Shown here piece by piece: positions 4,887-64,000 of a stretch of 64,000 bases of DNA. The translations under genes and the position numbers were made by a program. This DNA is from Eledone cirrhosa (lineage: Eukaryota). The notes under the pieces were generated by a model, which saw only the letters and a program-made list of their open reading frames with translations, had not been told where the DNA came from and made no database searches. The stretch covers positions 186,682,001 to 186,746,000 of the forward strand of contig OZ024740.1 in assembly GCA_964016885.1 (NCBI GenBank). The letters are read 5' to 3'. The stretch's first letter is position 1. Each line of letters opens with the position of its first letter.

Positions 4887-4982
4887 ATATATGAATGTAT
4901 ATATAGTGTATTTTGCAATACACTGTATGCTTAATTAAGCATACAGTGTATTCCAAAATACACTATATATACATTCATATAT
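4887..4982. repeat. 96-bp palindrome centred on TTAATTAA
   Basis: 48-bp arms, no spacer, one mismatch; right arm is repeated directly at 5251-5333. Confidence 0.9.
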
Positions 4983-19058: not shown

Positions 19059-19107
19059 GTGTATGTAATTCTTATTTTTAACTAGCATTCTTAGAATGGC
19101 TACACTT

Positions 19108-40156: not shown

Positions 40157-40192
<36 letters not shown>

Positions 40193-40194
<2 letters not shown>

Positions 40195-41232
40195 GTAGGA
40201 GGGGAGTTTTATTGTAGTACAATAAAGCAATGCAAATATTGGATAAGTAGCACTCTACAGTTTGTAGGACTGGAGTATAAATAATATAAGATCAAAAGAT
40301 GGTTAAAAGAGTTCCAAGTATTTTATTATGTGCATTTCAAAAACAAATTTTGATGTTAGATTTTTCTTCCTTAAATTCCTTATTAATCCTTCCATGCTCG
40401 TTTGACTTTTACACATTACAATACATAAAAACAAACTTAAACCCTAACTAATTTCTTTTAATATATTATATTATTACCATTAGAAAATATTTCGTAAACA
40501 TATATATTTTTTGATGTTAGATATTTTCTTCCTTAAACATTCTTTTCTTCATTGCTTTCTGCGCTCATTTTTAAACAAACATACACATATTACGCACACA
40601 TATTACATTACATAAAAACAAACTTAAACCCTAACTAATTCCTCTAAATTCATAACTCATTCATTCTTCTACTTCTTTTCCCATTATATCCTTAATGACA
40701 TTACTATTTTTATTTTAATAATACATATTAATAATTTCTTTTCCTCGCACATATTATTAAACCCTTCAATATACAAACCTTAATTTAATATTATTCTTAA
40801 TCCCTTTTTCTCTTCATGCATAAACCTCATTAACTTTTAATTTCAAGTTCTTTTAAATTATCCAACGGCTTTTTAACTTCTCTCTGTGAGACAATATATT
40901 TATTTTCTCAGTTGTAAAGGCTATCTGTCTCTCATCTCTCCTCCTCTCTCATCCTTCCTTCTTATACTCCTCTCCCACCATTCTTTACTCTCATCTCCTC
41001 CTCTTCCTTACCTTTTCCACCCCACCCCCCTCACTTTTTCCCAATCTCAAATTATTTTTCATATGTTGATTTAAAACTTCACTATTCACAAGTGTTTTTT
41101 AAGCTTCATATCATGTATCCCTATTTTATCTGATGAAAACGCAGATATCATCCCATGATGATATTTGTTTTTGAAATGCGCATAATAAAATACTTGGAAC
41201 TCTTTTAACCATCTTTTGATCTTATATTATAT
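40193..41232 (+). mobile_element. Non-coding Penelope-like 3' UTR/pLTR copy with inverted short arm
   Basis: 40600-41232 matches reverse complement of 63025-63655; 40193-40350 is an inverted copy of the element tail; both ends abut (TA)n. Confidence 0.9.
41122..41192 (+). ncRNA. Type I minimal hammerhead ribozyme
   Basis: Stem I TATTTTAT/ATAAAATA, core CTGATGA, stem II with 15 of 16 pairs, GAAA, palindromic TGCGCA stem III, AUA triplet (cut predicted after 41184). Confidence 0.85.
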
Positions 41233-41459
41233 ATACATATATATATATATGAACAGACCTGCTTTTTCTTGAAGAATTTCTTTTTGTTTCTACACCTGCT
41301 CACTCTCCTCTATCGTTCTATTTCTTCTTTAATTTCTCATTATATATTGTGATGAAAGATTAGGGTCCAAAACTTTAAGATTATTCCTACTATATTAAGC
41401 ATGAATCTAATATATATCTTCATTGAACCACATTGTCTGTTGAGTCTTTTCCTTATACT

Positions 41460-41507
<48 letters not shown>

Positions 41508-42247
41508 TCATATATAATATGTGCATGAATATATGCATACATAAAAAAAAAAATATATATTGTTCAAATATTTGTGTTAGTTGATCTTCACAATTAATGA
41601 ACTTTGGTGTAATCATGCATAATCACTCCATGTCTTTAGCGTGCATATAAGTAAGAATTGGTATTACATGTATGGTATCAAATGGAGCATTGTTATGTTA
41701 TTATAAATGAAGAGACAACCCTATGTTTCCATGCATCAATTTATTATATTATGTAACATCTGTAATGTACATTTCAGAGGGATTAGGCAGTGATTACTGC
41801 AAAGCATTTCATTGAATGCTCTAACACTCCTGACAATCATATCAGATATTATAAACAACAATCTGAAAGAAAGAAAGGAAACAGAAAGGGGAGAAGGATG
41901 CTGAATATATTTGAATTTATTATGTCATACTTGTTAGCCTTTTTTTAAAAATATTTCAACGATGTAAGTTTGACCTTGTAAGATAATTTATCTTAGAATT
42001 CAAGATTGTCTTTATTTTTATATAATTGAGGTTGTAATCCATTTACAAATCAATCTTGTCTCTTTCTTCTTAAATAATATATTCTAAATGTCTTATGAAT
42101 TTTTCCTTTTAATGGAATTGAAGGAAAAAGAATTCAAAATATTGATTTTAATGTGTTTGGTTGTTGATTTCTAAATTACATTATCATTATCATAACATTA
42201 TTTTGATGTTATTATTGCTTTTATTATTTTCATAAGAGCAACAGCAG

Positions 42248-42396
42248 CTGTAGTAGTAGTAGTAGTGGTGGTGGTGGTGGTGGTGGTGGTGGTGGTGGTG
42301 GTGGTGGTGGTGGTGGTGGTGGTGGTGGTGGTGGTGGCGGCGGTGGTGGTGGTGGCGGTGGCGGTGGTGGCGGTGGCGGTGGTGGTGGTGGTGGTG

Positions 42397-42457
<61 letters not shown>

Positions 42458-42458
42458 A

Positions 42459-42520
<62 letters not shown>
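42248..42520. repeat. Compound triplet microsatellite (GTA/GTG/GCG/GCA)
   Basis: Direct reading. Confidence 0.95.
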
Positions 42521-43071
42521 AAATTAAACTTGTAGTATACATTTACATCTTTTGAAATAAAAACAAAATACATATTCAAGGTAATGTTTTCACAGGAAGA
42601 TTAGACAGTTCTGACTTGAATTGACAAAAATTAAAAAAACAAAATTAACCTCAGATACTGAAACATTTTGGGTTTAATCTATTGTAAAGAAATTTTATTT
42701 TTACAATAGATTAAAGTAAAAATTGATAAAATTAGAAATGCATAGCCAAATGATTAAGAAGTATGTTTGTAATCATGATGTCCTGGGTTCATTCCCAATG
42801 TATGACAACACAAGTCAATCCATATTCTCTGATTGATATTGAGTAGATTAAAATCGTACAGAAAGAAACCTATCAGATGGATTGTATGGAGATCCATGGA
42901 GAATTTGAGTAAGGGATGCTTGTGAAAAATTTAATTAGTATTGAATGGATTATTGTCCCTTATTTTCTGACTAGTACACATTCCCTATTATTGGAATGAG
43001 GACTCAGGAGCCAGACCATTTCGTAGGACACTTAGACAATGCTAGTTTGAAGTAGAGTACTACCTTCTAGT

Positions 43072-43383
43072 TCAATCCAATCCAGGGCCTGCTCATTCTT
43101 ATTGGGGGAAACCCTCTCAGGTTGACCTCTACTGCTTTCTGTTTGGGATGGTCATGTCAGGGTTGAGACTGTACTCACCACACTTGTCCAACTGGGGGGT
43201 TGGTAAAGCTATTTAACCCATAGTTAGTGTGGATGTCCATTGACTGAGGAGTTTATCTGCCCTTTTAACAGCTCTGTGATTTCTGCTGCAGCTGGGGTTC
43301 CACTTACCCTCCTCACCAGACCAGGGTCTGCTGGGGGTCTGGTTTAGTCACTGACGACTCAAACATGAAGCAAGTTGTACTGC
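43072..43383. mobile_element. GC-rich interspersed repeat, possibly RTE 5'-UTR derived
   Basis: Partial copies at 47135-47330 and 49255-49420 share CTATTTAACCCATAG and TTACCCTCCTCACCAG..CAG. Confidence 0.55.
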
Positions 43384-43791
43384 TTCATCATCAAAAAGCC
43401 TGCTTTGTTAGTGTACAAATTAGGACTTGAACTCCGCACTGCAAGCCAAGGAAGCAGTTATTAATTATAGAATGTTTCTTGCAATTCCTTTCTAGCTCTT
43501 TACACACCAAGTTAAAATTCTACCAAAGTCAATCTTCCTTTTCATCCATTTGTGGTTGATAAATAAAGTACCAATGTAGTATTGACATGAATATAATTTA
43601 ATGTTTCCTCTCTCCAAATTCCTATCCTTGTCCCTATACTAGAACACCTTGCATTTATCAGTTCTTATCCCATGATACATATATACATGAATTAGTGATT
43701 AAAAAATTAGAACTTTATGAAAAACTAAAATATTAATGGAAAAAATGAAACGAAATTTCGTTTCTCACTCTTAGTACGGCTGTTACTTAAA

Positions 43792-44017
43792 TATAAGTAT
43801 GTATACGTACATACATATATGTATACAGACGTACAGTAGTATGTATATATATATACATACATGCACACATATATATATGTACGTATGGATTCACCGGACA
43901 TTTATTATAATGCTCGGTGAATCCATACGTACATATATATGTGTGCATGTATGTATATATATATACATACTACTGTACATCTGTATACATATATGTATGT
44001 ACGTATACATACTTATA
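43792..44017. repeat. 226-bp near-perfect hairpin
   Basis: Arms of ~104 bp close on GGATTCACCG / CGGTGAATCC around an ~18-nt loop; only a few differences (a 2-nt TA indel and a CpG transition seen). Confidence 0.92.
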
Positions 44018-45584
44018 AAATATTAATTTTCAACATTTTTGAGATTTTTTTATAATCCAACTGATTGTTAAATATCAATCTGATTGAGTATAGAATCAAG
44101 TGATTCCTACCTCCTTTATATATTCTCAACTTTCCCTCACTCTCTCTTGCCTGCCCCCCCCCCCCCCCCACTTTCTCTTGCTTGATCCCCCCCACCTCTC
44201 TCTATGGCTATTCCTGCAATTGCTCTTTATAGGCAATGACAGCAGAATAGAATACAAGCAGTTCCAAAAATAATATATAAAATTTTCTTATTACTAAAGA
44301 ACCAATGAATAAAAGTGAATTTTCTCCCACTCTCATTCTTACTCTTTCTCGCCTCTATTCTTTCAGCTGACAAGACAGGGTAATAGTAATAGCAGACAAA
44401 TAAACATACATATGTATAAATATACATAAATGCTTTGACAATATACTTTTCCAACGCTGACAATTCTTTGACATCAATCATTGTTAAATAAAACTAAGTT
44501 TGCAGCTCAGTAAAAGTAGATATGTTTTTTAGGGGAGAGTTGGCATCTATATTTTAAGTAGATTATTTATTTATTTAGTCAGGAATAAATTTGCCTGTTT
44601 TCTCCATGAAACTGTCTTTTTCTAAACTGACAGCCTCTTTGAAGCTAAATACCCAAGTTTGTCAGCTTATTTATAGGAGTTTTCAAAGCTTCATAGCTTT
44701 AAAAAAAACAAAAAAAAAATACCAACTAGAGCAGTGGATCTCAAACTCTTTTCAGGTCATGTCAATCTACCTACTTTGTCTCCACCAGCTCTCCTATTCA
44801 GTATATTATAAAAGCAATATTCAGAATAATAGTTTAGATAACAAAATGAGAGATAATGTTTGGCTTTTGATACATTATTCAGCTACAAAGGAAATGTTTG
44901 TAAGGTAGTGAGTGTAGCCCATTGATCTAACCTATTATATTACCAGTACTTATTTTATCAAAGAGCAGCACATTAGCAGAGTTGTTAGAATGTCAGCAAG
45001 AGTACCTAGCAATGTTCCTCTGGCTTTCTGAACTCTAAGTTAAAATCTTGTTATGGCCAACGTTGCCTTTCAACCTTTTGATGTCAATAAAGAAAGTGCT
45101 AGACCAGCACAGTTGATTTGTGGAATTGTTAGAGTGTAAACAAACACATTGGAAAGGAGTAGTATGCCATCAACAAGTTATCTCAAGTGAGAAAATCTAG
45201 ACTTTCAGACAACATAAAAAGAACCTCTTTCTAGCAACTGTTACCTCTGCAATGGTGAAATGTGAAATGAAGTCCAACCCAGACCAGGAATTGAACCCAT
45301 GGCATTATGGTCGTAAGTCGAACACCCTAACTACTGGCCCATGCTAGTTGAAATACATCAAAATATACACCACATTAAGAAGAATCATTAAGATGAATTT
45401 TCTAAGCCTGGTCATAATTTTAAATGAAATAACTTGGATGAATCTATCTTTTCAATAAGAGAATGGATGATTACTCATGTAATAATTCAATACTATAATA
45501 CCTGGAAATGTGTCTTGTAACCACACTACAACATAGTTTTTACTTCACATGTTTATATACAACTCACAGTTTAAGGTCCAGTCC

Positions 45585-45890
45585 ACCTCATGGTGACAGC
45601 AGACAGAATGGAAAACATATTGCTCCAAAGGATGGTGAGGGAGACACTGAACTGATGGGGCTCATTCTTGTGGGTAGCAACTCTGCCCTGACAACAGTGA
45701 GTAGAGATGTAGTCGATTGGCCAGGAACATTGGAAGCGTCTACTGCCACAGACATGAGCACTAACTTATCAGAAGGCATCTGATACTTCAATAGTTTGCT
45801 CTCTCTAGCCTGACGAACAGAATAGCCTGGGATGGTAGATGAATGTGCCAGTATGTCACTAGAGAAGGTGTTGCGGTATCTAGCTTCATT
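45585..45890 (-). pseudogene. CRE-like RLE 3' fragment
   Basis: NTFSSDILAHSSTIPGYSVRQARESKLLKY..SDKLVLMSVAVDASNVPG..KNEP..SLTILWSNMFSIL; homologous to the 24156 and 52865 fragments; the GC-richer block probably extends to ~46240. Confidence 0.65.
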
Positions 45891-48130
45891 GATGAAGGGC
45901 CTACCATCACAGAACAGGAAGACTTCGATACACTCTGGTCTTTTACCATCTCCTCAGTCCAGCTCGAGCTGGGAAAGAAAGCCTGTGCTGTCCATGCCAT
46001 ATTTTATGATCTTGCCAAGAACAGCATGGCATGGAGGTAGCCAGCATTATAACAGTGTGACAGTGGGTGGAGACAGAAAGAATCTGCAGTTGTCTGAACT
46101 GACATTGGTGAGGTTCACAGATCTGAAGACAGAGTCTTAGGCAATGTGCAAACAGTCACTGTCCAGCTGAATGCTATTCAAGAGTGATGGTACAGTGATA
46201 AGGCAGGCACTGCTGAGGTTGGAAGTGGATATATGCTGCTTAGTCTAAGGTTTCCATTATAATATGACATGGTTGACATTCTTATATTCACTGCTCACTT
46301 TCTAAAGATATAAGGGGGCTTGAAAACCTATTGATATAGCTTAGCTAATATGTTGTATGGTTCATACTTTTATGATAAGTCTAATGTGATACATAAGGAA
46401 GCTATATTTCCCCAAATTTATTCTGCAACAGATGCTAAGGTTGACTATTTTGTATGTTACCTTAACTTATTATACCTCTGTGTATTTATGTTAAATGACT
46501 GCAAAGTCCTTATCTCAATATAAATTGCTCATTACAGAATGTAGATTCTATCATGTAAATGTTACATAAGACAACTAGCTCACATATTTTGGTGGTGTCA
46601 GCAAAAACACAATGATTCTTATCTAACTTGTGTTTATTACAGTGTTATGTTCATCTTTATTTAATAATGGCAAACTGCCTACTGAATTCTATTGTTTCTA
46701 ATGATAAGGTCATTGAAATTAGTAGATAAACATCAGCAATATTATAGAAAAACAAGCAAGCCTCTACATGGGAGATCAACCTGCTAGAAATAAAAGCCAA
46801 ATCTCCTTCAAATCCTGCCGACCTACTATAATTGGAAGAAAGAATTAGATAAAGCCTCTAGTATTTATGTTTCACAATATAATCATTAGATGTCTCAATT
46901 AATTTGGCTGCAATATATTCATTAAGTTGTTATAAGTCTTATAATTATCAAATAATTATACAGTGCAGCAGAATTAGTTAAGACAACTAAAGATTAAATA
47001 GTGTAAAAGAATTAGTCATCTCACTGACAGCATGCCACTTGTGTAAAATCTCTACTAATTCAGTCACTCTATAATCATTTATTGGAGACTGTAGTGTTGA
47101 GAAGAGCATCAACCTTTTTGATACCAATCCCATCCCATCCAATCCAATTGCCTGTTAATGAGGCTATTTCACCCACAGTTGAGCATTGACTCCGAGGAGA
47201 TCATCCACTCTTTTTACAGCTATTGTTTTTGTGCTTGTGGGGTTCTATTTACCCTCCTCACCAGGCCAGTGTCTGGTGAGGAAGCCAGTTTAGTCTCCAA
47301 ACACTCCACCATGAAGTACGTTGTTTTGGAATACTGATCTAACATATTTGAGGTTCTATGATATAAAAGTGTTTGTTTCAAAATGTTTATATTTACCTAA
47401 AAACCTCCCTACATAATAGTGTGTAAGAAACTTTGTTAAGCTATGCTCCACGTTACAGTTTAATAATGAGACATTTAGTTATATTACTAAAGCCTTCCAA
47501 ATTCTTTTTATTTTCCAAATTTTTGAAAATCGTAGACATTGTCTTTCATTATAAATATAAAAATGAAAGTGTCAAGTCTAGCTGAAGACATTACATACTT
47601 GACACCATCTTTAGTGTTAGTGCCATGATAAAATGTACCCAGTACACTCTGCAAAGTAGTTAACATTGCAAAAAGCATTCAGTTGTAGAAACCATGCCAA
47701 CAATAGTATGTACAAGCTAGATGTGGTCCTCTGACCTAAATAGAAAGCTAGTTATTCCCAATAGCAATTGACTCAGATATTGATACTATGTTCAACCCAT
47801 ACCAGCATGGAAAATAGACATAAAATGATGATGATGATATGGTGATGATATGATGAAGTTGTTGGTGATGCCTCTATAAAACCTATTAGTTGTCTATACT
47901 AATTCTACCACCCTATATAATCATTATTAGATGTCTTGGAAATTCTCAATGAATCATGAGAATCACTATGTCGCATGTTTCACCTATCAATAAAACCAAT
48001 CAAAATGAAAAAAAAAATACTCCCCGCTCTCTCACACACATACATATATGTGTGTGCGTGTGTATGCAATGTATATATATGAATATATGAATATATGTAT
48101 ACACACAGACATACAGACACACACACACAC

Positions 48131-48185
<55 letters not shown>

Positions 48186-48680
48186 TGTATGTATATATAT
48201 GTAAATATATATGCATATATATATATATGCATCTATATGTATGTGTATTGAAAAGTCTAATAACTAAATACAATGAAGAATAAAAAAAATAAAATAAAAC
48301 CAAGAAAAAAATCAATACTACATATGTCATAATTATTCAATTTTCCACCCACCAGCTAACAACATCTTGCTCTATGTTTATTACGTTTCAATAGGTGAAT
48401 TATTACTTAATTTGACAAGAAATATCTCTCTCCACCACACAAATAAAAAAAAGGCCAAACAGAAAAGAAGGAAAAATTACAGAAACATAAAAAGCATTTT
48501 TTTCTCGTAAAACAGAGAAAAAAAATAATAAGCCTACTATCTGTATTTCTCTTTCTCTCTCTATTATCACTCTTATATGTTCTGTCTCTATCATTTGTTC
48601 TCTCATTTTACTCCCCACTTCTGTTCTCACCCTTCTTGTTTCTTTTGTTGCTTATTTTCATTTTCTAATATTTCAATATA

Positions 48681-49222
48681 TACCATATATTCTGGCATAC
48701 AAGGCAACATTTTAACCTTAAAGTATCCAAACAAAAATAGAGGATGGGTTCGTTTTATACTCTAGGTATAATGCATGAAGCTTAACCCTTTGAACCAGAG
48801 CATTTGAATTATCAGCTGCAATTTGGTAGTACCCACAATAGAAGAAGCCAATCTTTTGACCACCAAGTGTCCTAGTTTATGCACCCTAAATAAACATAAG
48901 CTTTATTTTATGTATGGCTTGTTATGATCAGCAGTACATTTGTCTCCTTGTATGAATTTTTCTGACTTTTGCAGATCTAAATCATAAAACAAAAATTTAC
49001 AGGAAGAAAATAATTTTTGAAAACCACAAATATATATTTTTTTAGATTAGTCTAGTGTAGAGGCTGCAAAACATTCAGGAGTTTGACAATCAAAGAGTTA
49101 AATACTATGGCAAACGGTAGGTAGTTAGTATATATGATGGCTAACAGTAGGTTATGCCCTTCCTTGATAACTATTAATGCATCTTATATATCCAGTTGTC
49201 TTATACACCCAACAATTCAGTA
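48681..49222. mobile_element. Tc1/mariner-type (Tc2-like) MITE containing a nested TTAA MITE (48782-49101)
   Basis: Degenerate TIRs TACCATATATTCTGGCATACAAG / CTTATACACCCAACAATTCAGTA; inner TTAACCCTTTGA ... TCAAAGAGTTAA. Confidence 0.5.
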
Positions 49223-51490
49223 TTTACAACATTAAATCAAGATTGTTATAAAGATCCAATCCAATCAAACCCAGGGCTTTATCACTCCTGTTGGAGAAAC
49301 CACTCTCTGGTTGACCTCCAATGCTTTCTGTTTTATTTTGGTTGTCAGAGGGTATAGCTATATTGCAGGTTCGTGAGGTTATTTAACCCATAGCTGGAGT
49401 GGATGGCCATTGACTCTGGTAAAAAATAATGGGATGTTAAGATGTTCAACATTTTAAATGTTTTTATTGTTGTTTAGTCATAGGCCAGTGCTAACTGAAC
49501 AGATTAATAATGAAAACCTATAATCAATGTTTATCAAATATTATCCAACAATAACATTAGAAATTTATCAAACAATTAACCTCATCATTAAAGATGAAAA
49601 ATGTCACAATATTGTCACCTACACTATGTTTAGACATGTCTGCTCTTCAATCATCGTCTGGTATCTTATTTACAGATGTGTACTCAGTCCTGGTACAGGA
49701 ACCATTATTTCTAAAAAAAGGATATTAATGAACATTTGTATGCTTCTTCTTATCATGTACACACTTATAACTGTTGCTTGTGGTGGTGATAGGATAAGCA
49801 GTGTCTCATGAATACTCCCAGGGCCACAGCGTGGATGCTCCTATCTTGACCACATGCATTATGCTACTGAGTAGTTAAGTAGTTTGTTTCACAATCATGA
49901 AGTCCTGGCATCTTGGGCAAGTGTCTCTTTATTTCATCAAAGCCTCAGCTCAACCCACACGATGTGAGGCAAATTGGGTAGATGCATGGAAACATATCAC
50001 ATGCCAAACTATATTTAGACCTTGGGAGGCCTAGGGCAGTTGAGGTTTGGATCGCCCCTCATATCACAACACACGCATATGTATGCGTGTGTGTGTGTAT
50101 GTATGTAAATGTATATATAGATATATAGATATAGATATGTAGATATAAGATGGAAAAGACAGAAGGAGACAGGGAAGATGGGACTCTGTTTGGGGGTGGG
50201 GTGCTCTGTTTCATGAGAGGAGGGCCAGATAATTTACCCTCACCTCCCCATTAAATCCAGCCCTGATCACATTGATTATACTTCAAAAATCTCCCCTTTT
50301 GACAGATTTTAACTTGCTGAATGTACATATGGCTGGGGAATATTTAGTTACATACATGTTAACTTCATCAAACACCTGAATGCTTATCCTTGAAACTAGT
50401 GAATCTAATGGATCACCTGGTAATCTAATGGATAAGAACTATTCTTAGTTTAGAAATAAAAGTTTTTAGTTTGAATCCACTGTGTGATTATATTTAGTCT
50501 GAAATTGAATACAAATTTTCATCTCTGAAAATGAGGTTAATAGTAAAATGAAAAACAATCATATTTATATATTTAATCCTTAGAACATTAAAATACCAAA
50601 GTCAGATCTGATAATATTAGTCATTATTTGAGGACCAATATTAGCTTTTCAAGATACATGGACTGGCAGAATTGTTATAGTGTTGTAAAAATGATTTGTA
50701 ATATTTATTCTGGCTCTTTAAATTCTAATTTCAAATCCTTCTGGGGCCAACTTCCCTTTTCAACCTTTTAGGGTGTGTAAAATAAAGTGTCAATCATGTA
50801 TTGAGGTTGATATAATTAACAGTCTCTTCCCCACACCTAATTCCTAGTTTATGTCAGAAGTGATATTTTTTTTCCTTAAAAAATATTGAATGCAAATGTT
50901 TTATTCTTACTGGAACTAATCAAGAGAAGTGTAGACTTACCATAACTTGTTGAAATATTAACAATGAAAGCTTTTCGTAAATATATAGAAATTTATATTT
51001 AATGAGTGAATGCAGTCTGAGACTAGTCCAGTCATGTTTCACTGATGTTGAAACTTTTTAGGAAATATCGACTTAATATATTTTGCTGAATCATTAACAA
51101 TTCATGTAAATATAGAGATATGTATATGTAATGGTGTAGAGAAAAATAATTAATGAGAAATGAAATAATTTTGATATGTCATTCACATGAGACCCACTCC
51201 AGACAGGTTTCATTTTTGTTGGAACTTTTCAGCAGAAGTGCAAATTCAATGCAACTTGCAGGCGTATTAGCAATCGCATCACTAAGTAAACAAACAAACA
51301 AAAAAAATGTATATTTGTTGGTGGGAAGTAAAAGAACTAAGGTAAAATTAAATTATTCTTAGACGTCATCTGCATTATGTTAAAGGAGGCAGTAAAAGCA
51401 ATAAGAAATAGTGTTTTCCTTAGCTGTTTTTCAACATTATATAGATTAATTCTGACATATTAGTAAATTCTTACATGCCAAGATACTTAC

Positions 51491-51553
51491 CAACTCCTTG
51501 AGAACAAATGGGAAATAATACTGAAATGCTGCACAATAATCTATGATAGGAAC
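51491..51553 (-). other. Candidate 63-nt exon
   Basis: Acceptor ttttgtaatag, consensus donor G|gtaagt; phase 0 gives VPIIDYCAAFQYYFPFVLKEL. Confidence 0.2.
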
Positions 51554-52864
51554 CTATTACAAAATCTTATGTTGATATTATGAGCAGAGATTCAAAGTAT
51601 AAAATGTGTTCCTTCATTAAATACATTAGATAAGAATAAAGTTATAATCATAAGGCTGAAATCATTTGCACTTGGGCAGAGTGAACGTGAATATTCAGAA
51701 GTTGAAAGTAGATTTCCTGCAAGAAAACTAGATAAACAGCAGCTTCTAGGCAAAATCTTGATAGAATCTTCTTGTTTGATTTTTCATGTTGTGCAACTAG
51801 TTTTATTGGGGAAAATATTGAAAGCAGTCAATCTAAAATATATACAATAGCCTTCAAAATACCATTAAAAGTATCTAGACTGAATCTAAAAGTAGTCAGA
51901 CATACAGCATTCTGTTTATAACAGCCAGCACTTAACACAAATCAATGAAAGTGCTGTTTTGTAATTTAGGGACAACAAGATTTGTTTTTTTAATAAAATA
52001 AAAAAACAATGATGCTAGAGCTGAAGAGATCAACAAGAAGCAGAGAAATATATAGATATAGATAAACATAGAGAGAGAGTGAAAATGAAAGAGAGATAAA
52101 TAGATAGTGATAATAGAAATAAAGAGAAATAGATAGAGAAAGAGAGATATAAATAGGCAGGGGAGAGATTATTAGAGAAAGAAAGTGTAAAACATTTGCT
52201 AATCTATACATGTTTATTGGATACAAAATTGTTCTGTCTTGACTTGAAGAAGTCTTTTATTCTAAAACACATTTGACCTAAGCATTTACCTAATGTTTTC
52301 TTTCATCACAAAAGATCAATTTTTGATTATCTCAAAATATTTTCCTTTATGTATGTGTATTTGTGAATATGTGTGCAACAGCATTAGTATAATGTATGTA
52401 TTTTTCAAGTTTATGTATGTATGCTTGAGAAAGAGAGAGAACGAGAGAGAGAGAGAGTGGGGAGAGAAAATTATTCTAAAATTTTAAAAACTTACTTTTG
52501 TAATCAATATTTCTAAACTAAAATTCATTCCTTAAAATTCTGCTTTTCAAAAAATATATGACAGTACTGCATGTATATATACATTAACTAAGACTTGTAA
52601 CTTGGAAAGTTACATTATAAAATCATTTCAATAAGATCTGTATATGCAAATATATTTCAAATAATCCAATTCTTCCCCCAAAGGAGAAATATCTGTTGGT
52701 TATAAACTTACTGTAGCCAAGAGAAACTGAGATTAATTAATATTAGTTGATGTTATAATCATAGTTATAAACCTGAATTAATACTTATTTCATTTCTCAA
52801 CCTACTCATGCTCCTGGAAGTAAATCTAATCCACATGTTACCACCATCAATGGATTTTAAGGGT

Positions 52865-53220
52865 TAGTCTGCCTCCTGGTCCCAGCTGTCAGGATGGAGA
52901 AGATATTGCCCTGGAGGATGGTGAGGGTGATATGGTAGAACAGCCACTCTACCTCACAGGGCTTTCACTTGTGGGCATCCAACTCTGACCAGATAGCAGT
53001 GAACAGGGATGTTACTTGGAGGTCAAGAATGCTGGAAGTCCCCACTGACACAGGTTCAACCACAAACCTATCTGAAAGTGATCGATACTTGGTCAGTTTG
53101 CACTCTTAGGCCTGACAGACAGTGAAATATAGGCTGGTAGCTGAATTCACTAGGTTGCCACTAGAGAAGTTGTCACATGTGGCATCCCAGATGAGGGACC
53201 AAACCCTGAGAAATGGGAAG
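52865..53220 (-). pseudogene. CRE-like RLE 3' fragment
   Basis: SLIWDATC..FSSGNL...KLTKYRSLSDRFVVEPVSVGTS...PCEVEWLFYHITLTILQGNIFSIL. Confidence 0.72.
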
Positions 53221-53834
53221 GTTGTCATACCATCTATCTATTTTCATGCTTGCATGAGTTGGACATGTTATTATGGACCAGATTATTCAGAGCTACTGTA
53301 CTCCTATAGTTTACATCTTTTGGCATGGATTCTATGGCCTGATGCCCTTCTTAATACCAACCATTTTCCAGAGTGTACTAAGCACATTTTATCATGGCAC
53401 CAGCACTAGATAGGTTGTGACATCCTTGGTGTGACTAAAGAGTTTTCTTGATTTTTGGGGTTCTTTCCTAAATGCATCCCACTTTATAAGTGTACTTGGT
53501 GAATATCATCATGGTATCAGCACTAGAGAGATTGTCCTGTCCTTAGTATGACTAGAGTCCTCTCTTCCCTATGTAATTTACCTTGACATTAACACATTTA
53601 TGTTAACAATTATTGCAGTCTCAATAAATTGCAGTCTCAATAAATTTGTTTCAAATCTCTCTTGAAATATCATCTTAAAGAAGAAAGAGATATGTAGTCC
53701 TAGATAGTGTCAGAATTAAAAAAAAGAAATGATCACAACTACGATGCTTTTGATATGACTTTCCTGGGTAAACAACAACACTGTCGACCAGAAGTGGAGA
53801 TTTTACATGGACATTATTCTTAATAAATGTTGAC

Positions 53835-54078
53835 ATTTAGTGGTTAGAGAACTGGATTCACAATCATGATGTTCAAGTCGATTCCTGGAACAGGCAATAC
53901 ACTATGCCTTTGAGTAAGACATTTTATTTCACATTGCTCCTTCTGCCACGGGTTGTGACTGATAGATAGTATCAGCAATGGAAAGACCAATAGAAAGATT
54001 GTTTTCGTTGTCTGATTTGATGAGTTCTACCTCACTCAATAAGCAAATGAAGTCTGGAATCTTGTCGATCATTTAAAG
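53835..54078 (+). mobile_element. tRNA-derived SINE family C
   Basis: TTAGTGGTTAGAG head, GTCGATTCC B-box-like; body matches 33480-33735 reversed. Confidence 0.7.
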
Positions 54079-54631
54079 AAAAGTGTAGAAACTAAGTTTT
54101 CTTTAATAACCTCCATCATAATTAAAATGAAGACATTATTTAAGCATCTAAAACAAATTTCTTACAATCCTTATGATAATTAGTATCAACTGGGTTATGT
54201 CTGAATGTTAGGGCAGCCAGATGCAAGATAAGTCTAGCTATAAACTTAAACTGAACAGATCCTCAATGTTTGGCAACTGTCTGTATGAATAGAGCTAATC
54301 ATCCTACTCAATATTAATACAAGTCTTGAACCAACACGTTTAAACCTCCAGTAATAGCAATCAAACTCTTTCAAATCACCACTTACCATTTTCGAAAAAA
54401 AAAAGAATTGGATATTGTCGTCTGTGCACAAAAAAAAACAAACACAAATTGATGAAGGTTAAATTATCAATGATCACAGGTCGGGACTAGACAATAACAT
54501 TTGTTAGCTGGGATCTTCTAAATATTAGATTGCAAGATCATTCATCAAAATCACACCTCTTCATCACCTCTGATGCCACTCCATCTTCTCCATGAAGAAT
54601 ATTAAGAAGCCAGAGAAGATTACTAATGTAG

Positions 54632-55212
54632 GTGGGATGCTGCCAGAATTGGTTGACGACTTCCTGTATTTGGGAGCAAAGATTGGGAATATGGAAGTTG
54701 ATGAGGAAGAGCAAAGCCTGGGCGGCATGCCACAGCCTGAGATCGGTGTGGAAGTCAGACCTTCGTAAAGACCTAAAGATCTGCCTCTTCATTGCTGTAG
54801 TGGAGTCTGTGCTGCTGTACGGGTCTGATACTTCAACACTGACCAAGAAACTCACTCAGATGGTGGATGGGTGCTACACGAGAATGGTGAGGATGGCTCT
54901 GAATATTAATCAGTATACACTGAGGATGAAGAACTCAGAGCTGTAAGGGAGCCTTCAAAAGTCATCTCGAAAGTGACACAGAAGAGACTGAGGTTAGCTG
55001 GACATGCTCACCAACATCCATAGTTGATACTGCACTCAGTGCTCCTGCATGGAGACACTGGAAGAGGAAGACCGAGGTTAACATATGTTGATGACCTGAG
55101 GATAGACACTGGTCTCTTGCAGACGCAGGACATGGCAGTCATAATGAGGGACAGAGACCGCTGGAGAGAACTCGTCCATGGATCTCAGAAATTTTACCCA
55201 CCCTAGATAGAT
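54632..55212 (+). pseudogene. RTE-X-like LINE 3' fragment
   Basis: VDDFLYLG, KAWAACHSLRSVWKS, VVESVLLYGS, DGCYTRMVRMALNI, RLRLAGH, GRGRPRLTYVDDL, MRDRDRWR; TAGATAGAT end. Confidence 0.85.
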
Positions 55213-55604
55213 CATTAAAGCACCATACAAAATGCCTCACAATATTTAGTTATGTCATTTTATATTCAGAGTTCAAATACCGCTGAAGTACTTTGCTTCT
55301 CCTCTTGCCAAGGGTTGATAAAATACATACCAATCAAATACTGTGTTTGATTTACTTGCCTATACCACTCCACCAAACCTCTGGTGTAGTAGATTTCATA
55401 GACCATTATATATATATATACCTGTTGAAATGGCAAGAGCTCAGCTGTCACTCTTTGTCTCTATAGTGAGGTTGATTCGTTCTTTATTTCTCAATATAAA
55501 ATAAGTACCAGTTATAAACTAAAGCCAATTAAACTGACTATCTTTTTATTCACTATGAATTTGTAGCCTTTGTTCCAGTGTTAGAAATCAATTACATTCT
55601 GATA

Positions 55605-55647
<43 letters not shown>

Positions 55648-56614
55648 TTTTTTTTTTAGTTTTGTTGTGTAGATTAAAAAGGAAAAAATTACAATCATCA
55701 TTTATTTTCTACCTACATTAATTAGTACATGCTTATACTATGCTATTATAAGTGAAAAACCAAACAAAGCAGGCATTATTACTTTTAACTCTTCGTTAAT
55801 GATGTCTACACAACAGAATACTAATGTTAAATGCATTATTCTGTTGCAATCAGCAACTTCTAAATGATACAGAAAGAGCTAATAACTACAGCAATATAGT
55901 AGACGTTCTAGAAAACGAAAGCAACAAACTTAGTTACTATAGTGAATGTCCATTAGTAGCTGTGAAATGCTCGGTTGGGGGTTGGCAAAAATCAACTTCT
56001 TTAACATTTACAATTGACTCGCTATTCAAGGTGATAATAGGTTACAATTAGTCGACACAGCTTGCAAGCATTTCTCTTACAACACCTTCTGCTCATTGAA
56101 AAGGGGCTCCAATAAAAGAAAGTGAAATGAATGAAAGGAGAAATGATCAAAGAATATCCTGTTCAGAGTGCAACATTAACAAATACCAAGGTCAATTCAA
56201 CTTGATTCTTGTCCCAGCAATAAGTAGATTATACGAAGTTCTATGCAAAGCTCTCCTTGCGTGAGAACAGGTTTCCATGTATGTGCATGTGTATGGTAAC
56301 CTGTGCATCTCTAAACAAAATGAAATAAATGGCCACAAATTATGGTGCTAATATAATTATCAGGAAATATGTTGTTGTTATTATTATTATCATTATTATT
56401 ATAAGTATTATTATTGGTGTTGTTGTTGCCAAAATGCTTACCCGTATTCAGTTATAGCACTTTACATTCAGAGATCAAATCCACGTGGGGTCAACTTTGC
56501 CTTTCATCTTTACAGTGTTACTAAAATAAAGTGCTAGTCAAGTATTGAGTTGATATAATTGGTTGTCACCTCCCACCATATTTTCTGGCCTTGCACCTAT
56601 TAGAAACAATTCTT

Positions 56615-57985
56615 CTTATTATTATGAATTTGATATCTCAGTCATTGATTTAACTGGAAAATTTACCCAAATGAACATCAAGCTTCTACCTGCAGCCTCA
56701 GATATTCAGGTCATATTAAAGGGTCCTTCCTGTTCCTAATAGGCCATGCCTTGTGAAGTTTTCCAAAAAAGGGGCCTGGGCTAATGCTCTTTAACCAGCT
56801 CTGGAAAATCTTCAAGATAGTACATAGGGTTCCTATGATGATAGGGACGACCTTGATCTCATGACAATCCCAAATCCTTTTCAATTCCCACCTTAGATCT
56901 TGGTACTGGTTAATTTTTCTCCTCCTTTTCTTGCACTCTTGTGCCAAAGGGGCAAGCTACATCTAATATCAAGCAAGATCTTTTTTTTTCTTTTTTGATT
57001 TTTGTAATTTTGGCTATGACACGTTTTAGTTCCTCTATTACCTTTTGTGTTGTATTTCTCTGTCAATCAATCCTTAGCATCAGTGTTTTATAAAGCCCGT
57101 TTGTTGAAAACTCAATTTTCACAATGTCCTTTTTTATTTCCTTGATGTGACCATTCAACTGCTTCTTCCATCAAAGTTCTGTCCTTTCTTGCCTGTTTTC
57201 CCTCATTTTGATATCAACCATTTTTTCACCATAATTGTGTCTGCTTTGAGGATATTGTTGCACTGGTGAAGCTTCTTCACCTCAATGTATGGGACAATCC
57301 TGTTTACCCTGTTTACCCTAGCTGTTGTTTTTTTTGTTTTTTTTCTGTCTACAAACCTTAGATTCATAGGTTTTCCCCTATCATTATTCATTTCATCCTC
57401 CATTAAATTCAGAATATCAATAAAATTTTGCCCTAGCCCATCAAACATTAATTTTCTCAATGACTGTATCTTTATTCCATATTTTATTTCTCTCAGCATT
57501 TAGATGATTACCTTCTTCAATTACTTCCTCAGATCACCCAACCACTTCACCCTTATTTTCTACTGGCTCATTTTTCTGACTTGTTCTGCTTTCTACAGGC
57601 TCATTTGCCCGATCTGCTCCACTTTCCATTTCCAGCTTATTCTCTCTACTCAGTTCCTTCAATTCCAACTCACTTACCCATCCATTAGTTCATATTAGAT
57701 GAGCCTGGCCTGCTAGTTTTTGTTTACTCAATTCAAGTAGACCATTATCATTCCAGATTTTATGTATTCATTGCTTTCCTTAGTGGGATCACTTTTCAGA
57801 TAAAATTTCATTACAATTTTATTCAATTCCTTCATCCAGTTGGTTCTTGCTTTGTTCCTTCTTCTTCCTCCAACACTAGAGGTAGTTGGATGATAGTTGG
57901 ATCCCTGCTGCAAAGCAGGTGAGAGTCCTTCACATGAAGTTCCAGCCTCTTTTACACCATTATGTGAACTATTTAGGTTCAATAT
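56615..57985 (-). mobile_element. Internally deleted R4/Dong-like non-LTR element
   Basis: N-terminal RTNWMKELNKIVMKFYLKSDPT and C-terminal RLE CLILDVACPFGTRVQEKEE-KINQYQDLRWELKRIWDCHEIKVVPIIIG; short (TAA)n tail; no RT motifs between. Confidence 0.75.
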
Positions 57986-58727
57986 TTAAGCACTCATAAA
58001 GAGGATTAGTGAATTCAAATCTGAGAGCTTTCTGCACAAAACAAATGTGAGAAATGTTGGAGTTGTACATGTTTGGCAAGTGATTTGAGCTAAGACTGTG
58101 TTTTGAAACAAAAGTGATTAGATTCTGAGAAAAATATTTTTGTTATATAAAACATATAAAAATTATTACATCTACTTTTCATTTATTTCTTGAAGTTCGA
58201 ACATATTTGTTGCAAGCTGATCAATGATATAATTCTGTTTCAGTGGAATTGTGTCAGTGATTATGTTGCAGAGGAGCAATGAAAATATTGACTTCCCATA
58301 ATAGATGACATATGAAAGTTTTTGTCTGTTTGTTTCTTTTTATGGCTGAGAGTCAAGAAATGAAAGAAGAATTAAAATAAATTGGAAGAGAGGGGAAAAA
58401 AGGGAAGTGGAAGACAAAAGAAGGAAAAGTAAGCTAGCTATACCAGTGTGTAGTTTAGTTAAAATGAACCCTTTACATCAATTAGATTTATGAGTGATGG
58501 TCTAATATTGGTCATAAAACAAATTAAAACACTTAAGAAATTTTAGGATGTATGGTAAAAACAGTGTTTAGGCTAATATCCCAGTAGTCAAATATTGGTA
58601 ATCAAATCTTAACTTGCAAAAATTATGCTATAAATAATAATATTTTCATTCTCAAGAGAGATGGATGAATTAATTTATTTTATGAAAAAATACACTGACT
58701 CACAAACACGCGCACACACACACACAC

Positions 58728-58789
<62 letters not shown>

Positions 58790-59244
58790 CAGATATTTTC
58801 AACACATACTCTCTGAGTTGTGTGGATTAAATGCTTTAGTAGGAAAGAAAGAAAAATCTTTTGAAAGCTACAGTTATGCAATTTTATGGGAGTGGGCCTA
58901 ACATATAGCACAATGCAGCCTGTTCAAAATATTTGCCAATTCAAGAATTCTATTTGGGATGTTCTATTGAAGAAATTAACTAAAACATTATAAAAGATAC
59001 TTGGTCTTCTTTTCAATATATGATATTAACAGAAAAGAAAATTCAAAGTATTTTATGAAGAAGAAATATTAAGAATAAAATGGAAAGAAAGTAAAAATAA
59101 AATATGTACTTGTTTGAGGATAAAACGAATGAGTGTATACACACACACAGACACACATATATATATATACACACACACAAACACATATATATATATATAT
59201 ATATATAATATATAAGATCAAAAGATGGTTAAAAGAGTTCCATG

Positions 59245-59315
59245 TATTTTATTATGCGCATTTCAAAAACAAATATCATCATGCAATAAGATTTGTGTTT
59301 TCATCAGATAAAATA
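59245..59315 (-). ncRNA. Type I minimal hammerhead ribozyme
   Basis: Same fold as 41122-41192; sense to the PLE ORF; stem II substitutions mostly keep pairing. Confidence 0.8.
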
Positions 59316-59669
59316 GGAAGACATGATATGAAGGTTAAAAAACACTTGTGAATAGTGCAGTTTTAAATCAACATATGAAAAGTAGTTTTAGATTGATGTG
59401 TGATATTGGGAAAAAAAAATGTGAGGGGGGGGGGGTGAAAAAGAGGAGGAGATGAGAGTAAAACGTGGAGGGGGAGAAGTATAATTAGGAAGGATGAGAT
59501 AGGAGGAGAGATGGGTGATAGAGAGAGAGAGATAGCTTTTATAACTGAGAAAAATATATTGTTTTACATAGGGAGGTTGAAAAACCGTTGGAAGATAATA
59601 TATAAATTAAAAGAATTTGAAAATTAACGAAGAGAAAAAAATAATGTTAAGTTAAGATTTGTATATTGA

Positions 59670-59837
59670 AGGGTTTAATAATATGTGCGATGAAAAGAAA
59701 TCGTTAATATGTATTAAGAATCATATTTAAGGGTTTAATAATATGTGCGATGGAAAGAAAATTTTAATATGTATTAAGAATAATATTTAAGGGTTTAATA
59801 ATATGTGCGATGGAAAGAAAATGTTGATATGTATTAT
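59670..59837. repeat. 60-bp tandem repeat x3 in PLE 3' UTR
   Basis: AGGGTTTAATAATATGTGCGATG.AAAGAAA recurs at 60-bp spacing; single copy in the sister elements. Confidence 0.9.
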
Positions 59838-60250
59838 TAAAAAAACAATAGTAATGTAAGTAAGGATATATTAGATGAGCATGAAAGGTGGAAAAAATAA
59901 TGAATTGAGGATGAATAATCTAACGTCAAAAAAATGTTTATGTTTACGAAGGATTTTTTCAAGGTGATATAGAGTAAGAATATATTGTACTGTGTAATAA
60001 TTGTTTCTATGTTAGGCACAATGAGAAAAGGTACAGATTACGGGTTAGAAATTAAAAGAAAAAGAAAAGAAAAGGAAAAGGAAGAAAGGGAAGTGATAAA
60101 TAGGAGTGATATAGAATGAGTAACTAGTATTATATAATGTATAATAAATAACTTTGAAATAAGGTAGAAGGATGGGTATATTTTTAAAGAAGTATATATA
60201 TATATATGTGCCTTTGAGAAAAGGATTTTAAATTGATAAAGTATTAGATA

Positions 60251-62578
60251 TTAGCTGTATACTTTATGGAATGTTCTGTGGAATTTATGCAAGCAGAGAG
60301 AAAACAAGTCAGTGCGTCTATTTTCATTTAAACAGAGATTGCAACTGTTCAAGTATGGAGAAGCAGAAGAAACCTTTTTCCAAGAGATGTTATATTTAAT
60401 ATTTTTGTCTTTCAAGGACCATATGAGTTCTGAGAATGCCGTGTTGGTTCTTTTAAGTTGGTATTTAAAAGATGAATGATGATTATAAAGACGAGCTTTA
60501 ATGGAGGTGGAAGTGGAGCCAAAATAGGTGAAGGAATTGGTGTCAGTTATAACTTTACATTCGTAGATTAAGTTTTTTTCAAGACAATGGTTGTTGAGAG
60601 GACATTTATTTTTAATAGGGCAATTGCAATTGCGATTAGAGAGATTAGCAGAGTTATAGTGACCTAGTGTTATCTATAGAAGGAATTGGATTGGAGAAGT
60701 TATTTACGATAGGAATAATAGTTTCTTGATTTAGAATGGGATTAAGAACATTTAGCGAAGTTGTGTTTGACGTTGTATTTGGGTTTGCAGAAATTAGCCT
60801 AGAGTTTACAATGACGTCGGGAGTACTATTACTATTATTATGATATTCAGTGTTGGAAGGAAGAGATTTAGTATTTAGTATTTTATTGTTGTATTTAGAG
60901 ATAATGTTGGAAATGGTGTAGCAGGTCGAATAGGAAAATTTTATAGTGTGTTTGTTAAATATTTTACTATAGATATGTGAGGGAGGGAAGCATTTATTTA
61001 AGGCACTAAAGAATAATTTAGGAATATTATTATTAAATGAGATGGAGAAAGGAGTATTATACCAGATTATGTTTTTGTATCTAGGTCTTTTATTAAAGTT
61101 ATTGGAATGATCATTATTAATTATTCTACTGTAAGATCTTCTAGAATTTGTTTCTTTACTATATTTGATTTTCTCAGGATAGCCGGCTTTAGAAAGCGCG
61201 TTATTATAGTAATTGGCGTTAGCATCAAAGATGTTTTTATTAGAAGATAGGTTAGATATTCTTTTTCCAATATTACTAACTATAGCATTCTTAATATTAG
61301 TGGGGTGGTTAGATTTAAAATTAACATAATTTAGGTTTTCATTGTTTTTATGGTAAGGGTAATATAGGCCAGTGTCAAGATTAAGAGATACATTCAAGAA
61401 ATTAGCTAGTTTGATGCTGTTATCAAATTCAATTTTTAAGTTATGTTGGTTAAAGAGATTACGTATATTGTTCTTGATAATATTAAGGTTAACTATGTTG
61501 CAATTTAAGATAGTAAAGAGTCCATCGTCACGATAAATTCCACCGCGAAGTTGAGGAATTTTCCGACTCAAAGAGTTCAAAATAAAGATACCAATTAAAT
61601 CTGTCAATTGGGATGAATCGGATGCTCCCATTGTGATGTCGAAATTGTTAGAGGTATCAGCTCTGGTCCAATATTCATTGTTGAACTCTAGGATGGTTTT
61701 ACGTGCGGTGAGAATGATGTGAAGTTCATCTGCGGTGATGTCAGAATATTTAAATGCGAAAGATAGAGCATTGTTGAGAAGTGAAGGCGAAATAGAAGAA
61801 TAGTAGCTGGCAATATCAAATTGAACAAATTTTAGTTTGTTTTTATTATTCAATTTGTTGAACCAGCCAATTACTTCAGAAGTACCAAACCATAAATTTA
61901 AGTTCAAAGAAGAGCAATTAGAACGAACCTGTGGGATAATTCTAACCAAGATGGCTTTGCTAACAACGCCCAGATCTGATTTAGAGGGGGCGATTAATCT
62001 AACAGGTAGTTCAGTACGAAAATTGTTTTTGTGATCCTTGAGATTTATCCTCGGAGTCCTTGGGAGGAATGGTTCGGTCTTTTTTCCGATGCCAAGTTTT
62101 GACATAATCTCAGAAGCCTCAAAGTTTATGGATTCTAAATTATCATGGTTGGTTTTTCGATATTTTTTCCTAAGTTCCTTTAGGATAAGGTTGTTATAGT
62201 TATTCTTGGAAATACCATATAAATTATTGGTTTTGAGGAATTTAGGTTTGAAATTGTGTTCTTGAGATTTACAAGGTGCTCTTGTCCTTTGTAAGGGTAT
62301 CTCTTGAATTTAAGATTTTTTATAATTTTTGTTAAGTCTTCCTCGAATTGCACTAGATTTTTGTTGGAAGGAGGATTTCTTCTAGAATTAAATAGATGAT
62401 CGAGGAAGTTATGTTCCTTGGTATAGAAGTTCCCTTTTAGATGCTGGTCATAGAAATAAGCTATCCATCTAAGCCTTCTTACAAAGGAGTCAGTTTTTTC
62501 AATTAGAAGTTTGGTGAATTCAGATTTACCAGGTATAGGAATGTCTTTAGTTGAATTGGTTATGTTGTAATAATCCAT
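60251..62578 (-). pseudogene. Penelope-like RT plus GIY-YIG endonuclease, frameshifted
   Basis: STKDIPIP..LIEKT..VRRLRW N-terminus; (D)KTNNLY; LKDHKNNF..PVRLIAPSKSDLG; FDIASYYSSI; ITMGASDS; GIYRDDGL; FLNVSLNL; then CNC..CPLNNHC..LIY..YFGST..R.YNH..CNLC..CLH; frameshifts near 62230, in the linker before 60650, and near 60488. Confidence 0.93.
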
Positions 62579-62732
62579 GTTGTAGAAGAAAAAGATAAAG
62601 GACCATCAAAAGGTATCCAATATGATATCCAATTGATCTTATATATTATGTATACTCCAGTCCTACAAATTGTAGAGTGCTTCTTATCCGATATCTGCAT
62701 TGCTTTATTGTACTACAATAAAACTCACCTCC

Positions 62733-62735
<3 letters not shown>

Positions 62736-62828
<93 letters not shown>

Positions 62829-62871
62829 TATATATAAATATATAATATATATATACATATATATGTATATG

Positions 62872-62937
<66 letters not shown>
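62736..62937. repeat. (TA)n array between two PLE tails
   Basis: Direct reading. Confidence 0.95.
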
Positions 62938-62939
<2 letters not shown>

Positions 62940-64000
62940 AGGTGAGTTTTATTGTAGTACAATAAAACAATACATATATCGGATAAGTAGCACTCTACAG
63001 TTTGTAGGACTGGAGTATAAATAATATATAAGATTCTAAGATGGTTAAAAGAGTTCCAAGTATTTTATTATGCGCATTTCAAAAACAAATATCATCATGA
63101 GATGATATCTGCGTTTTCATCAGATAAAATAGGGATACATGATATGAAGCTTAAAAAACACTTGTGAATAGTGAAGTTTTAAATCAACATATGAAAAATA
63201 ATTTAAGATTGATGTATGATATTGGGAAAAAGTGAGGGGGGTTTGGAAAGGGTGAGAAAGAGGAGGAGATGAGAATAGAGAATGGTGGGGGAGGAATATA
63301 AGAAGGAAGGATGAGAGAGGAAATAGAGAGAGAGAGAGAGATAGCCTTTACAACTGAGAAAAATAAATATTGTCTCACAGAAAGAAGTTAAAAAGCCGTT
63401 GGAAGATAATAGATAATTTAAAAGAATTTGAAATTAAAAGTTGATGAAGAGAAAAAGGGGGGTTAAGAATAATATTAAATTAAGGTTTGTATATTGAAGG
63501 GTTTAATAATCTGTTCTAGGAAAAGAAATTGTTAATATGTATTATTAAAATAAAAATATTAATGTTTTTAAGGATATACTGTGAAAAGAAGTAGAAGAGT
63601 GGATGAGTTATGAATTTAGAGGAATTATTTAGTGTTTAAGTTTGTTTTTATGTAATACCTATTTCGGTTCCACTTCCACCTCATTCAAGGTGAGATTTTA
63701 TAATCACAATTCTTCTTTTAAATACCAACTTAAAAGAACTAACACGGCACTCTCAGAACTCATATGGTCCTTGAAAGACAAAAATATTAACTATAACATC
63801 TCTTGTTGGAAAGTTTGTTCTGCCTCTCCCTACTTGAATGCCTCCCTATCTAGAACGTGTAATCTTTGTTTATCTGAGAAATTTACCATTATATCTAATT
63901 TAGATTCTATAATAAATAGACGCACTGATTTATTTTCTCTCTGCTTGCATAAATTCCACAGAACATTCCATAAAGTATACAGCTAATATCTAATACTTTA
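62937..64000. mobile_element. Third PLE insertion: 3' UTR (-) 62937-63656 joined to GIY-YIG C-terminus (+) 63657-63986; continues beyond window
   Basis: TYFGSTSTSFKVRFYNHNSSFKYQ...CNLCLSEKFTII..INRRTDLFSLCLHK is an inverted paralogue of 60251-60530. Confidence 0.9.
63061..63131 (-). ncRNA. Type I minimal hammerhead ribozyme
   Basis: Identical to the 41122-41192 core except loop II (TCAT vs CCAT). Confidence 0.85.

Follow-up and report, generated by a model that had tools for sequence, protein, structure and literature searches.

Penelope-like elements (PLEs) have already been described as biased towards microsatellites, as carrying an inverted copy and as bearing a tail on one side only (PMC8557442, PMC3846280). 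In the canonical unit, as represented by Penelope of D. virilis (PMC2377424), Pen2a of Adineta vaga (PMC3846280) and the legend to Fig. 2 of Craig et al. 2021 (PMC8557442), partial tandem copies form pseudo-long terminal repeats (pLTRs) with an internal promoter, a 5'-truncated copy lies inverted and head-to-head, and the tail stands at one end. The same four features recur in a PLE family of Eledone cirrhosa with three insertions, units 1 to 3, in the window analysed here (the whole 64,000-nt stretch of contig OZ024740.1, assembly GCA_964016885.1; positions are window positions). Each unit consists of two inverted pieces of one repeat family that meet at a head-to-head joint, with the element 3' ends pointing outward into (TA)n. 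As a rule, one arm of such an insertion terminates at a fixed site T1 and the other at a second fixed site, T2; this arrangement points to twin priming on one RNA as its probable origin.

The closest described clade is the Hydra clade of PLEs with a C-terminal endonuclease (EN+), characterized by a DKT motif, a CxCX5C linker, a GIY-YIG core without CCHH, CxxC and CxH motifs, a hammerhead and insertion into (TA)n (PMC8557442, Craig et al. 2021). For another PLE, the Poseidon element PAc of Anolis carolinensis, both target strands are cut and extended in vitro, and the reverse transcriptase (RT) starts at two internal sites between which the tail lies (PMC11167929, Frangieh et al. 2024). A retrozyme preprint (10.64898/2026.07.22.740005) and PMC13282606 have, in the portions consulted, no bearing on mechanism.

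Two termini and their pairing in (TA)n

Both termini are fixed in position. T2 ends stop a few bases past ...TTTTGATCT, which serves as the anchor (position 0) for element coordinates, and the tract directly after T2 is the TA-like TATATTAT. T1 ends run through the tail to about +97; T1 is placed 96 nt past the T2 anchor, T1 arms have about 88 nt that T2 arms lack, and poly(A) is absent from T1. A 26-mer at T1 has 10,789 exact genomic matches, a lower bound on the number of such ends, and 8,394 of them are followed directly by an 8-nt TA-type tract (6,434 and 1,960 in the two TA phases, which were counted by separate patterns). One T2+TA variant has 5,362 genomic matches.

Microsatellite targeting, proposed in the original prediction from the termini visible in the window, holds for the family as sampled. 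A (TA)n run follows 75 of 76 sampled T1 ends, whereas a perfect TA run of at least 8 nt starts at about 2.8% of random window positions, and chance is therefore excluded as the explanation for this contact. T2 partner ends have a TA run of 10 nt or more in 52 of 55 cases. No boundary duplication was found in 75 evaluable flank pairs, where a target-site duplication would be masked by (TA)n. Some tracts have been hit repeatedly: at 62736-62936 in the window and at loci L124, L165, L176 and L181 (numbers after such locus names are positions within the locus), one (TA)n tract is shared end to end with another family member.

On contig 1, taken in order of position, the first 73 exact T1 matches and the first 70 matches to T2+TA had their partners classified by hand from BLAST, with the reference masked for its TA island beforehand. 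Thirty top-scoring loci were kept outside these counts on account of their bias to long T1 arms; 20 of them entered the arm-identity tests below. Three T1 matches are internal. The 70 terminal ones comprise 55 with an inverted T2 arm, one with a T1 arm, two whose partner end is lost and 12 that are apparently single, three of which keep a short partner remnant. The 70 T2 ends divide into 52 with a T1 arm, six (three insertions) with a T2 arm, two with a lost or remnant partner and 10 singles (one partner was placed by coordinate). Hence the two-armed, head-to-head layout is routine in the family, as had been supposed: an inverted partner or its remnant accompanies 61 of the 70 ends with a tail and 60 of the 70 without one.

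Where both ends could be typed, the partner is T2 for 55 of 56 T1 ends and T1 for 52 of 58 T2 ends. If each end chose its site independently, these fractions would sum to 1; the observed sum is 1.88. The proposal that synthesis is primed at both ends of a break and that two truncated complementary DNAs (cDNAs) are then joined is supported by this pairing, but the two ends play different parts, one T1 and one T2 per insertion. Seven of the 10 single T2 arms have their head directly in (TA)n, showing that T2 can start on its own.

Same-end pairs are few. Of the four counted, three are embedded in inverted duplications that take in host flank (at least 60 nt; one at least 2.9 kb at 99%), a layout which suggests that they are probably secondary. 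At two loci, L190 (1473-9001) and L191 (2316-7505), the same-end pairs are within inverted duplications of 2.4 to at least 2.9 kb with host flank included, one of them 99% identical; the element palindromes may be seeds of larger fold-back rearrangements, or the duplications may be assembly errors. At L176 (about 2625-2815), the T2 site within a T1 arm is interrupted by the insertion of a short interspersed repeat, with a target duplication of 13 nt, which mimics a T2/T2 pair.

The inversions are also seen in reads. Raw restriction-site-associated DNA (RAD) reads from three samples of another study contain loose TA ends at T1 and T2 together with strand-switch joints. One example, a switch from +3 to -127, occurs in all three RAD runs; few start positions underlie these read observations. 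Read-derived contigs contain many different joints between tail arms and position -161 (see below).

One source for both arms and a stop at -161

At polymorphic sites, the two arms of an insertion mismatch at 33 of 1,677 positions (2%; 85 arm pairs), as against 40% between insertions, and a test on 70 pairs had the same outcome. The arms of one insertion differ by 1.4%, and variants follow subfamilies in both arms. On the sequence evidence, here and at the inner ends, the two arms of an insertion share both their source and the stretch of template from which they were copied.

Arm lengths vary continuously up to 3.6 kb, and inner ends are concentrated at -161, where 41 of 110 arms stop. This site (the A of ATATGTTG) lies at 41061 on the + strand in unit 1, whose own copy reads through it. 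Both heads are at -161 in 15 of 55 pairs, and an arm ending at -161 is paired with an arm reaching beyond it in one of 55, as against 14.6 expected (0 of 100,000 permutations were as low). In the read-through copies, -161 is preceded by C without exception (64 of 64). Genome-wide, the read-through form is present at 4,880 sites and a G precedes -161 at 2,201 sites; G was also counted by hand before -161 in 11 of 18 unambiguous heads of the sample. An untemplated G is a known mark of reverse transcription over a cap. The extra G at the stop, taken with the internal promoter in the pLTR of Penelope (PMC2377424), argues that -161 is likely the start of the RNA and the extra G a record of its cap.

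Two other sources of inner ends were tried and rejected. Hammerhead cleavage is predicted near -45, away from the hot spot at -161. Nor is there a clear excess of stops that would reflect the T1 enzyme colliding with the T2 primer: 10 of 55 T1 arms stop by about -12, and early stops are about as frequent among T2 arms.

Among 63 joints between arms, 23 have at least 2 nt of microhomology, six have 1 nt, three are blunt and 31 have inserts, which are often short or taken from nearby sequence; microhomology of at least 2 nt is thus found at 23 of the 32 insert-free joints. The commonest single joint is a self-complementary ATAT at -161, with 795 exact sites, and joints at -161 differ among copies. 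In 20 of 24 long-arm insertions (p=0.006; two near-ties) the T2 arm extends further upstream than the T1 arm, so that it cannot be a copy of the latter. Since the tail is found only on T1 arms, it was not copied from the T2 arm either.

Probable twin priming and its alternatives

The feature itself is real and family-wide. As for its origin, we favour programmed twin priming on one RNA template followed by end-joining, with a probability of roughly two in three that this is how units 1-3 were made; the mechanism is well supported but unproven. The element's enzyme would cleave a (TA)n tract on both strands. One target 3' end would prime cDNA synthesis at T1 of the RNA, the other at T2, which the same template has about 90 nt further upstream, and short AU-rich pairing to (TA)n could help the target ends to take these two sites. 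We infer that each terminus marks a priming event. Extension of each cDNA would continue up to a stall or up to the RNA 5' end at -161, and the cap would be recorded there by the extra G. The cDNAs would then anneal or be end-joined head-to-head through their 3' ends, and each would template the second strand of the other. In a partial-tandem transcript, T1 and T2 would be present in both the 5' leader and the 3' pLTR; priming in the leader would yield a short (about 430 bp) palindromic class, and priming in the 3' pLTR a long class.

Two described systems come close to this model. PAc resembles the family as modelled in its two RT start sites downstream of the hammerhead, the cutting and extension of both target strands and an AT-rich target. 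In PAc both sites are used on either strand and have no homology to the target, and the account as consulted (PMC11167929) states no coupling between them, whereas here each end has one site, the sites are upstream of the open reading frame (ORF), and there is short AU-rich homology to (TA)n. Twin or dual priming of L1 (PMC2837659) likewise involves two target 3' ends, two cDNAs and a head-to-head joint, often with microhomology. Unlike in L1, here there is no priming at poly(A), the second site is fixed rather than random, the arms mostly overlap instead of leaving a deletion, and the route is the main one rather than a minority.

Several observations weigh against twin priming on one RNA. 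About one end in seven is without a partner. Same-end pairs without a flank duplication exist (T2/T2 at L049/L050, and T1/T1 in L124, which is outside the counted set). Both samples are drawn from a single contig, within its first 70 Mb, they overlap, and as exact matches they represent younger copies. The 31 joints with inserts have these in place of microhomology; A or T precedes -161 at 2,343 genomic sites, so that the cap G is not universal; and gene conversion could account for part of the arm identity. A test for a single RNA molecule by shared A-to-G editing was negative (among 26 rare shared variants, two are A>G and four T>C), and no RNA holding the family is among the matches listed. 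Finally, the T1 arm passes T2 in 45 of 55 T1/T2 pairs, and the arms therefore overlap. One RNA would thus have been copied twice over the same stretch, by strand displacement or by sequential use. PLE RTs are not known to have RNase H, and its absence would permit such repeat copying.

The same overlap would fit equally well with two RNAs from one source. In this alternative a dimeric particle would hold two transcripts of one locus, and an asymmetry would direct T1 priming to one and T2 priming to the other. A dimer has been predicted for PAc (PMC11167929), a dual-priming proposal exists for L1 (PMC2837659), and the editing test gave no proof of a single molecule. However, the two RNAs would have to match in both subfamily and length class (mixed in 1 of 55 pairs), and the longer T2 arms are not explained by the model itself. 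We consider this alternative unlikely, if the best placed of the rivals.

Somewhat more doubtful is self-priming fold-back, related to the model of Arkhipova 2013, in which a single cDNA copies itself from its 3' end and anneals to the other (TA)n end through TATATTAT at T2, with later deletions producing the asymmetry. PMC3846280 favours self-priming and reports palindromes at joints; the 795 perfect palindromic joints, the near-identical arms and the TA-like tract just past T2 would also suit it. The arm lengths argue the other way, in that T2 arms are mostly longer than the T1 arms from which they would have been copied (20/24, and 7/7 short/long pairs). Raw reads and contigs contain many tail-only arms joined to longer arms, and true fold-back products in this genome extend through the end into host flank. 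The restriction of the tail to T1, the longer T2 arms and the occurrence of solo T2 arms would each fit the fold-back of one cDNA only if additional deletions were assumed, and this explanation is disfavoured.

A separate observation concerns the flanks. Three of 72 T1/T2 insertions (unit 1, at 40131-40159 and 41251-41279; L018; L089) have flanks that are inverted duplicates of each other, with 22-26 matching letters. None of 148 element-free TA arrays had inverted flank duplicates in an anchored control, which was scored differently from the insertion test and which replaced an earlier control (32/348) dominated by simple sequence. These duplicates are possibly due to snap-back synthesis at the break.

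The short palindromes could also be a composite element, resembling miniature inverted-repeat transposable elements (MITEs), that spreads as a preformed two-armed unit, as both heads at -161 in 15 of 55 pairs and one exact junction at 795 sites might suggest. This very improbable reading is already largely refuted by junction diversity: junctions at -161 differ between copies, no uniform unit with a fixed interior is seen, arm lengths run on to 3.6 kb, and subfamily variants track in both arms. Least credible of all is that the inversions are assembly artefacts or long post-insertion events, because raw reads of other individuals contain these strand-switch joints too and the arms differ by 1.4% and end at two different fixed sites, even though secondary inversions do exist (the far end of unit 3, L190, L191) and unit 1's own junction is bridged by no contig among the matches listed, a joint-scoring script having given no resolution either.

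The three units, the element and its wider significance

Within the window, the unit coordinates and orientations of the original prediction and the two-armed, head-to-head layout were borne out for all three units, and all five visible termini touch (TA)n, at 40160-40192, 41233-41250, 59185-59206 and, for units 2 and 3 in common, 62736-62936. The five ends all point outward as had been said, but only three carry the tail. Equivalent tails at both ends had been assumed, and the long arms of units 1 and 2 instead stop about 90 nt earlier, at T2.

Unit 1 lies between the (TA)n tracts 40160-40192 and 41233-41250, with its inverted flank duplicates at 40131-40159 and 41251-41279. Its tail-bearing T1 arm (40193-40350, - strand) covers about -59 to +98 relative to T2, and its T2 arm (40351 to about 41232, + strand) contains the 3' untranslated region and pLTR up to T2, without the tail; a putative type I hammerhead, recognized by motif (CUGAUGA...GAAA-UGCGCA-UA), is at 41120-41194 (+ strand).

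Unit 2 follows a (TA)n/(CA)n target at 59157-59206, of which 59185-59206 is the (TA)n tract. The two arms proposed for it stand, with corrected borders: a T2 arm at 59200-62625 (- strand), a 7-nt insert at 62626-62632 copied from nearby arm sequence, and a T1 arm at 62633-62737 (+ strand) that is the tail alone and stops at the T2 site. The T2 arm is an almost complete monomer that spans the element from just past the upstream T1 position, on its downstream side, as far as T2, and contains a putative type I hammerhead motif (59243-59317, - strand) and the RT-GIY-YIG ORF of Hydra type (60251-62578, - strand), split over three reading frames. Other near-full-length arms also end just downstream of the upstream T1 position (L093 at 1970 and L171 at 1850, compared with 62625 in the window); in L093 the arm stop comes after an A-run of about 22 nt.

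The T1 end of unit 3 shares the (TA)n tract 62736-62936 with that of unit 2. Its T1 arm (62933-63656, - strand) has a putative hammerhead motif at 63059-63133, and its tail-less partner arm (63657-64000, + strand) starts in the endonuclease coding region and continues for about 1 kb past the window, to about 65011. A fourth tail had been predicted beyond 64000; the sequence there has a tail-less T2 end instead, flipped at about 65012-65355 (L031 3012-3356). The flipped segment and the partner arm are identical over 84 of 84 overlapping bases, an 84-nt duplication. We read this as a later local inversion, the pattern being that expected from a double template switch. Other palindromes in the window, several of them centred on simple repeats, lie at 43792-44017, 4882-4987, 13098-13268 and 18750-19063.

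By motif match to the published description of the clade, the family is a Hydra-type PLE. A natural copy at L107 has an open ORF of 798 amino acids with an RT (YRDDG at 356) plus a GIY-YIG domain at the C-terminal end (LIY...YFG at 676), both assigned by motif. The ORF also has SDKTN at 122 (DKT instead of DKG), a CxCX5C linker (CNCPVKNKC at 657), CNLC (CxxC) at 757 and CLH (CxH) at 785; the GIY-YIG core has one cysteine, and CCHH is absent. A search of protein representatives found 375 relatives at E <= 1e-30, and among the 27 long relatives in the best 40, DKT is present in 22 and DKG in none. A Pfam scan of the unit 2 ORF pieces and of the intact L107 ORF gave no domain match. The family thus resembles the Hydra clade in DKT, the linker, the loss of CCHH, the C-terminal CxxC and CxH, the hammerhead motif and the (TA)n target (PMC8557442). 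It differs in having RWI at 37, where the clade and the closest relatives have RWK (RWR in some of the latter), and in a monomer of 3.5-3.7 kb (the T2-to-T2 period in L107 is 3,709 nt), as against generally less than 3 kb, which is a tendency rather than a criterion. It also has at least 10,000 copies here, and the insertion anatomy is unquantified in the relevant passages of Craig et al. 2021 (PMC8557442). Beside a partial-tandem copy in L107 (5411-6382) lies a 323-amino-acid ORF with a helicase-like P-loop motif, which we take to be Helitron/PIF1-like.

Hammerhead core motifs with stems I and II are present in all three units, and each pLTR has one of minimal type I just upstream of T2; an Rfam scan gave no hammerhead match, only microsatellite-driven microRNA noise. 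Hammerhead repeats with the same stem I and a different stem II occur near these insertions, some of them palindromic (L015 1293-1363, L023 1003-1073, L049 304-372 and L103 2559-2628), and are probably sister PLE families. In partial tandems that form pLTRs (L069, L070, L086 and L091), the tail runs on into the ORF leader, a read-through pattern found at 207 genomic sites; the tail is therefore element sequence, as in PAc. An AATAAA lies 18 nt before T1. Folding of the tail gave three small hairpins (z about -1.8 to -2.0), which are not significant.

The element and the layout are of a known kind: layout, tail, TA targeting and two RT start sites are already published. The present family adds the Hydra clade, a tail that is about threefold longer than usual (about 90-97 nt, as against 30-40 in the canonical unit) and a template-class test; compared with that unit, two arms are the rule here (about 85%), with the tail on exactly one. 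The literature search found no one-of-each rule and no twin-priming proposal for PLEs; subscription papers that may hold such a model (Arkhipova 2006, Evgen'ev and Arkhipova 2005) lay outside it. The observation that prompted the analysis is confirmed, and its interpretation is partly supported.

The origin of the inverted ends, the one-sided tail and the second strand of PLEs is stated as open in PMC8557442, PMC3846280 and PMC11167929. We lean slightly towards twin priming as the normal, programmed integration route of PLEs, with fixed start sites on a single RNA, one per cut strand, and with the cDNAs as mutual second-strand templates. The tail would then be the spacing between RT start sites, about 90 nt here, and the same route would operate on the capped 5' leader to give thousands of 430-bp hammerhead palindromes. 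The strict rule of one T1 and one T2, on arms of one template, could be assayed directly in the existing in vitro system and would extend it to the divergent Hydra clade. Thousands of MITE-looking palindromes would be explained as by-products of retrotransposition, which is relevant to repeat annotation and to palindrome-driven instability in (TA)n-rich genomes.

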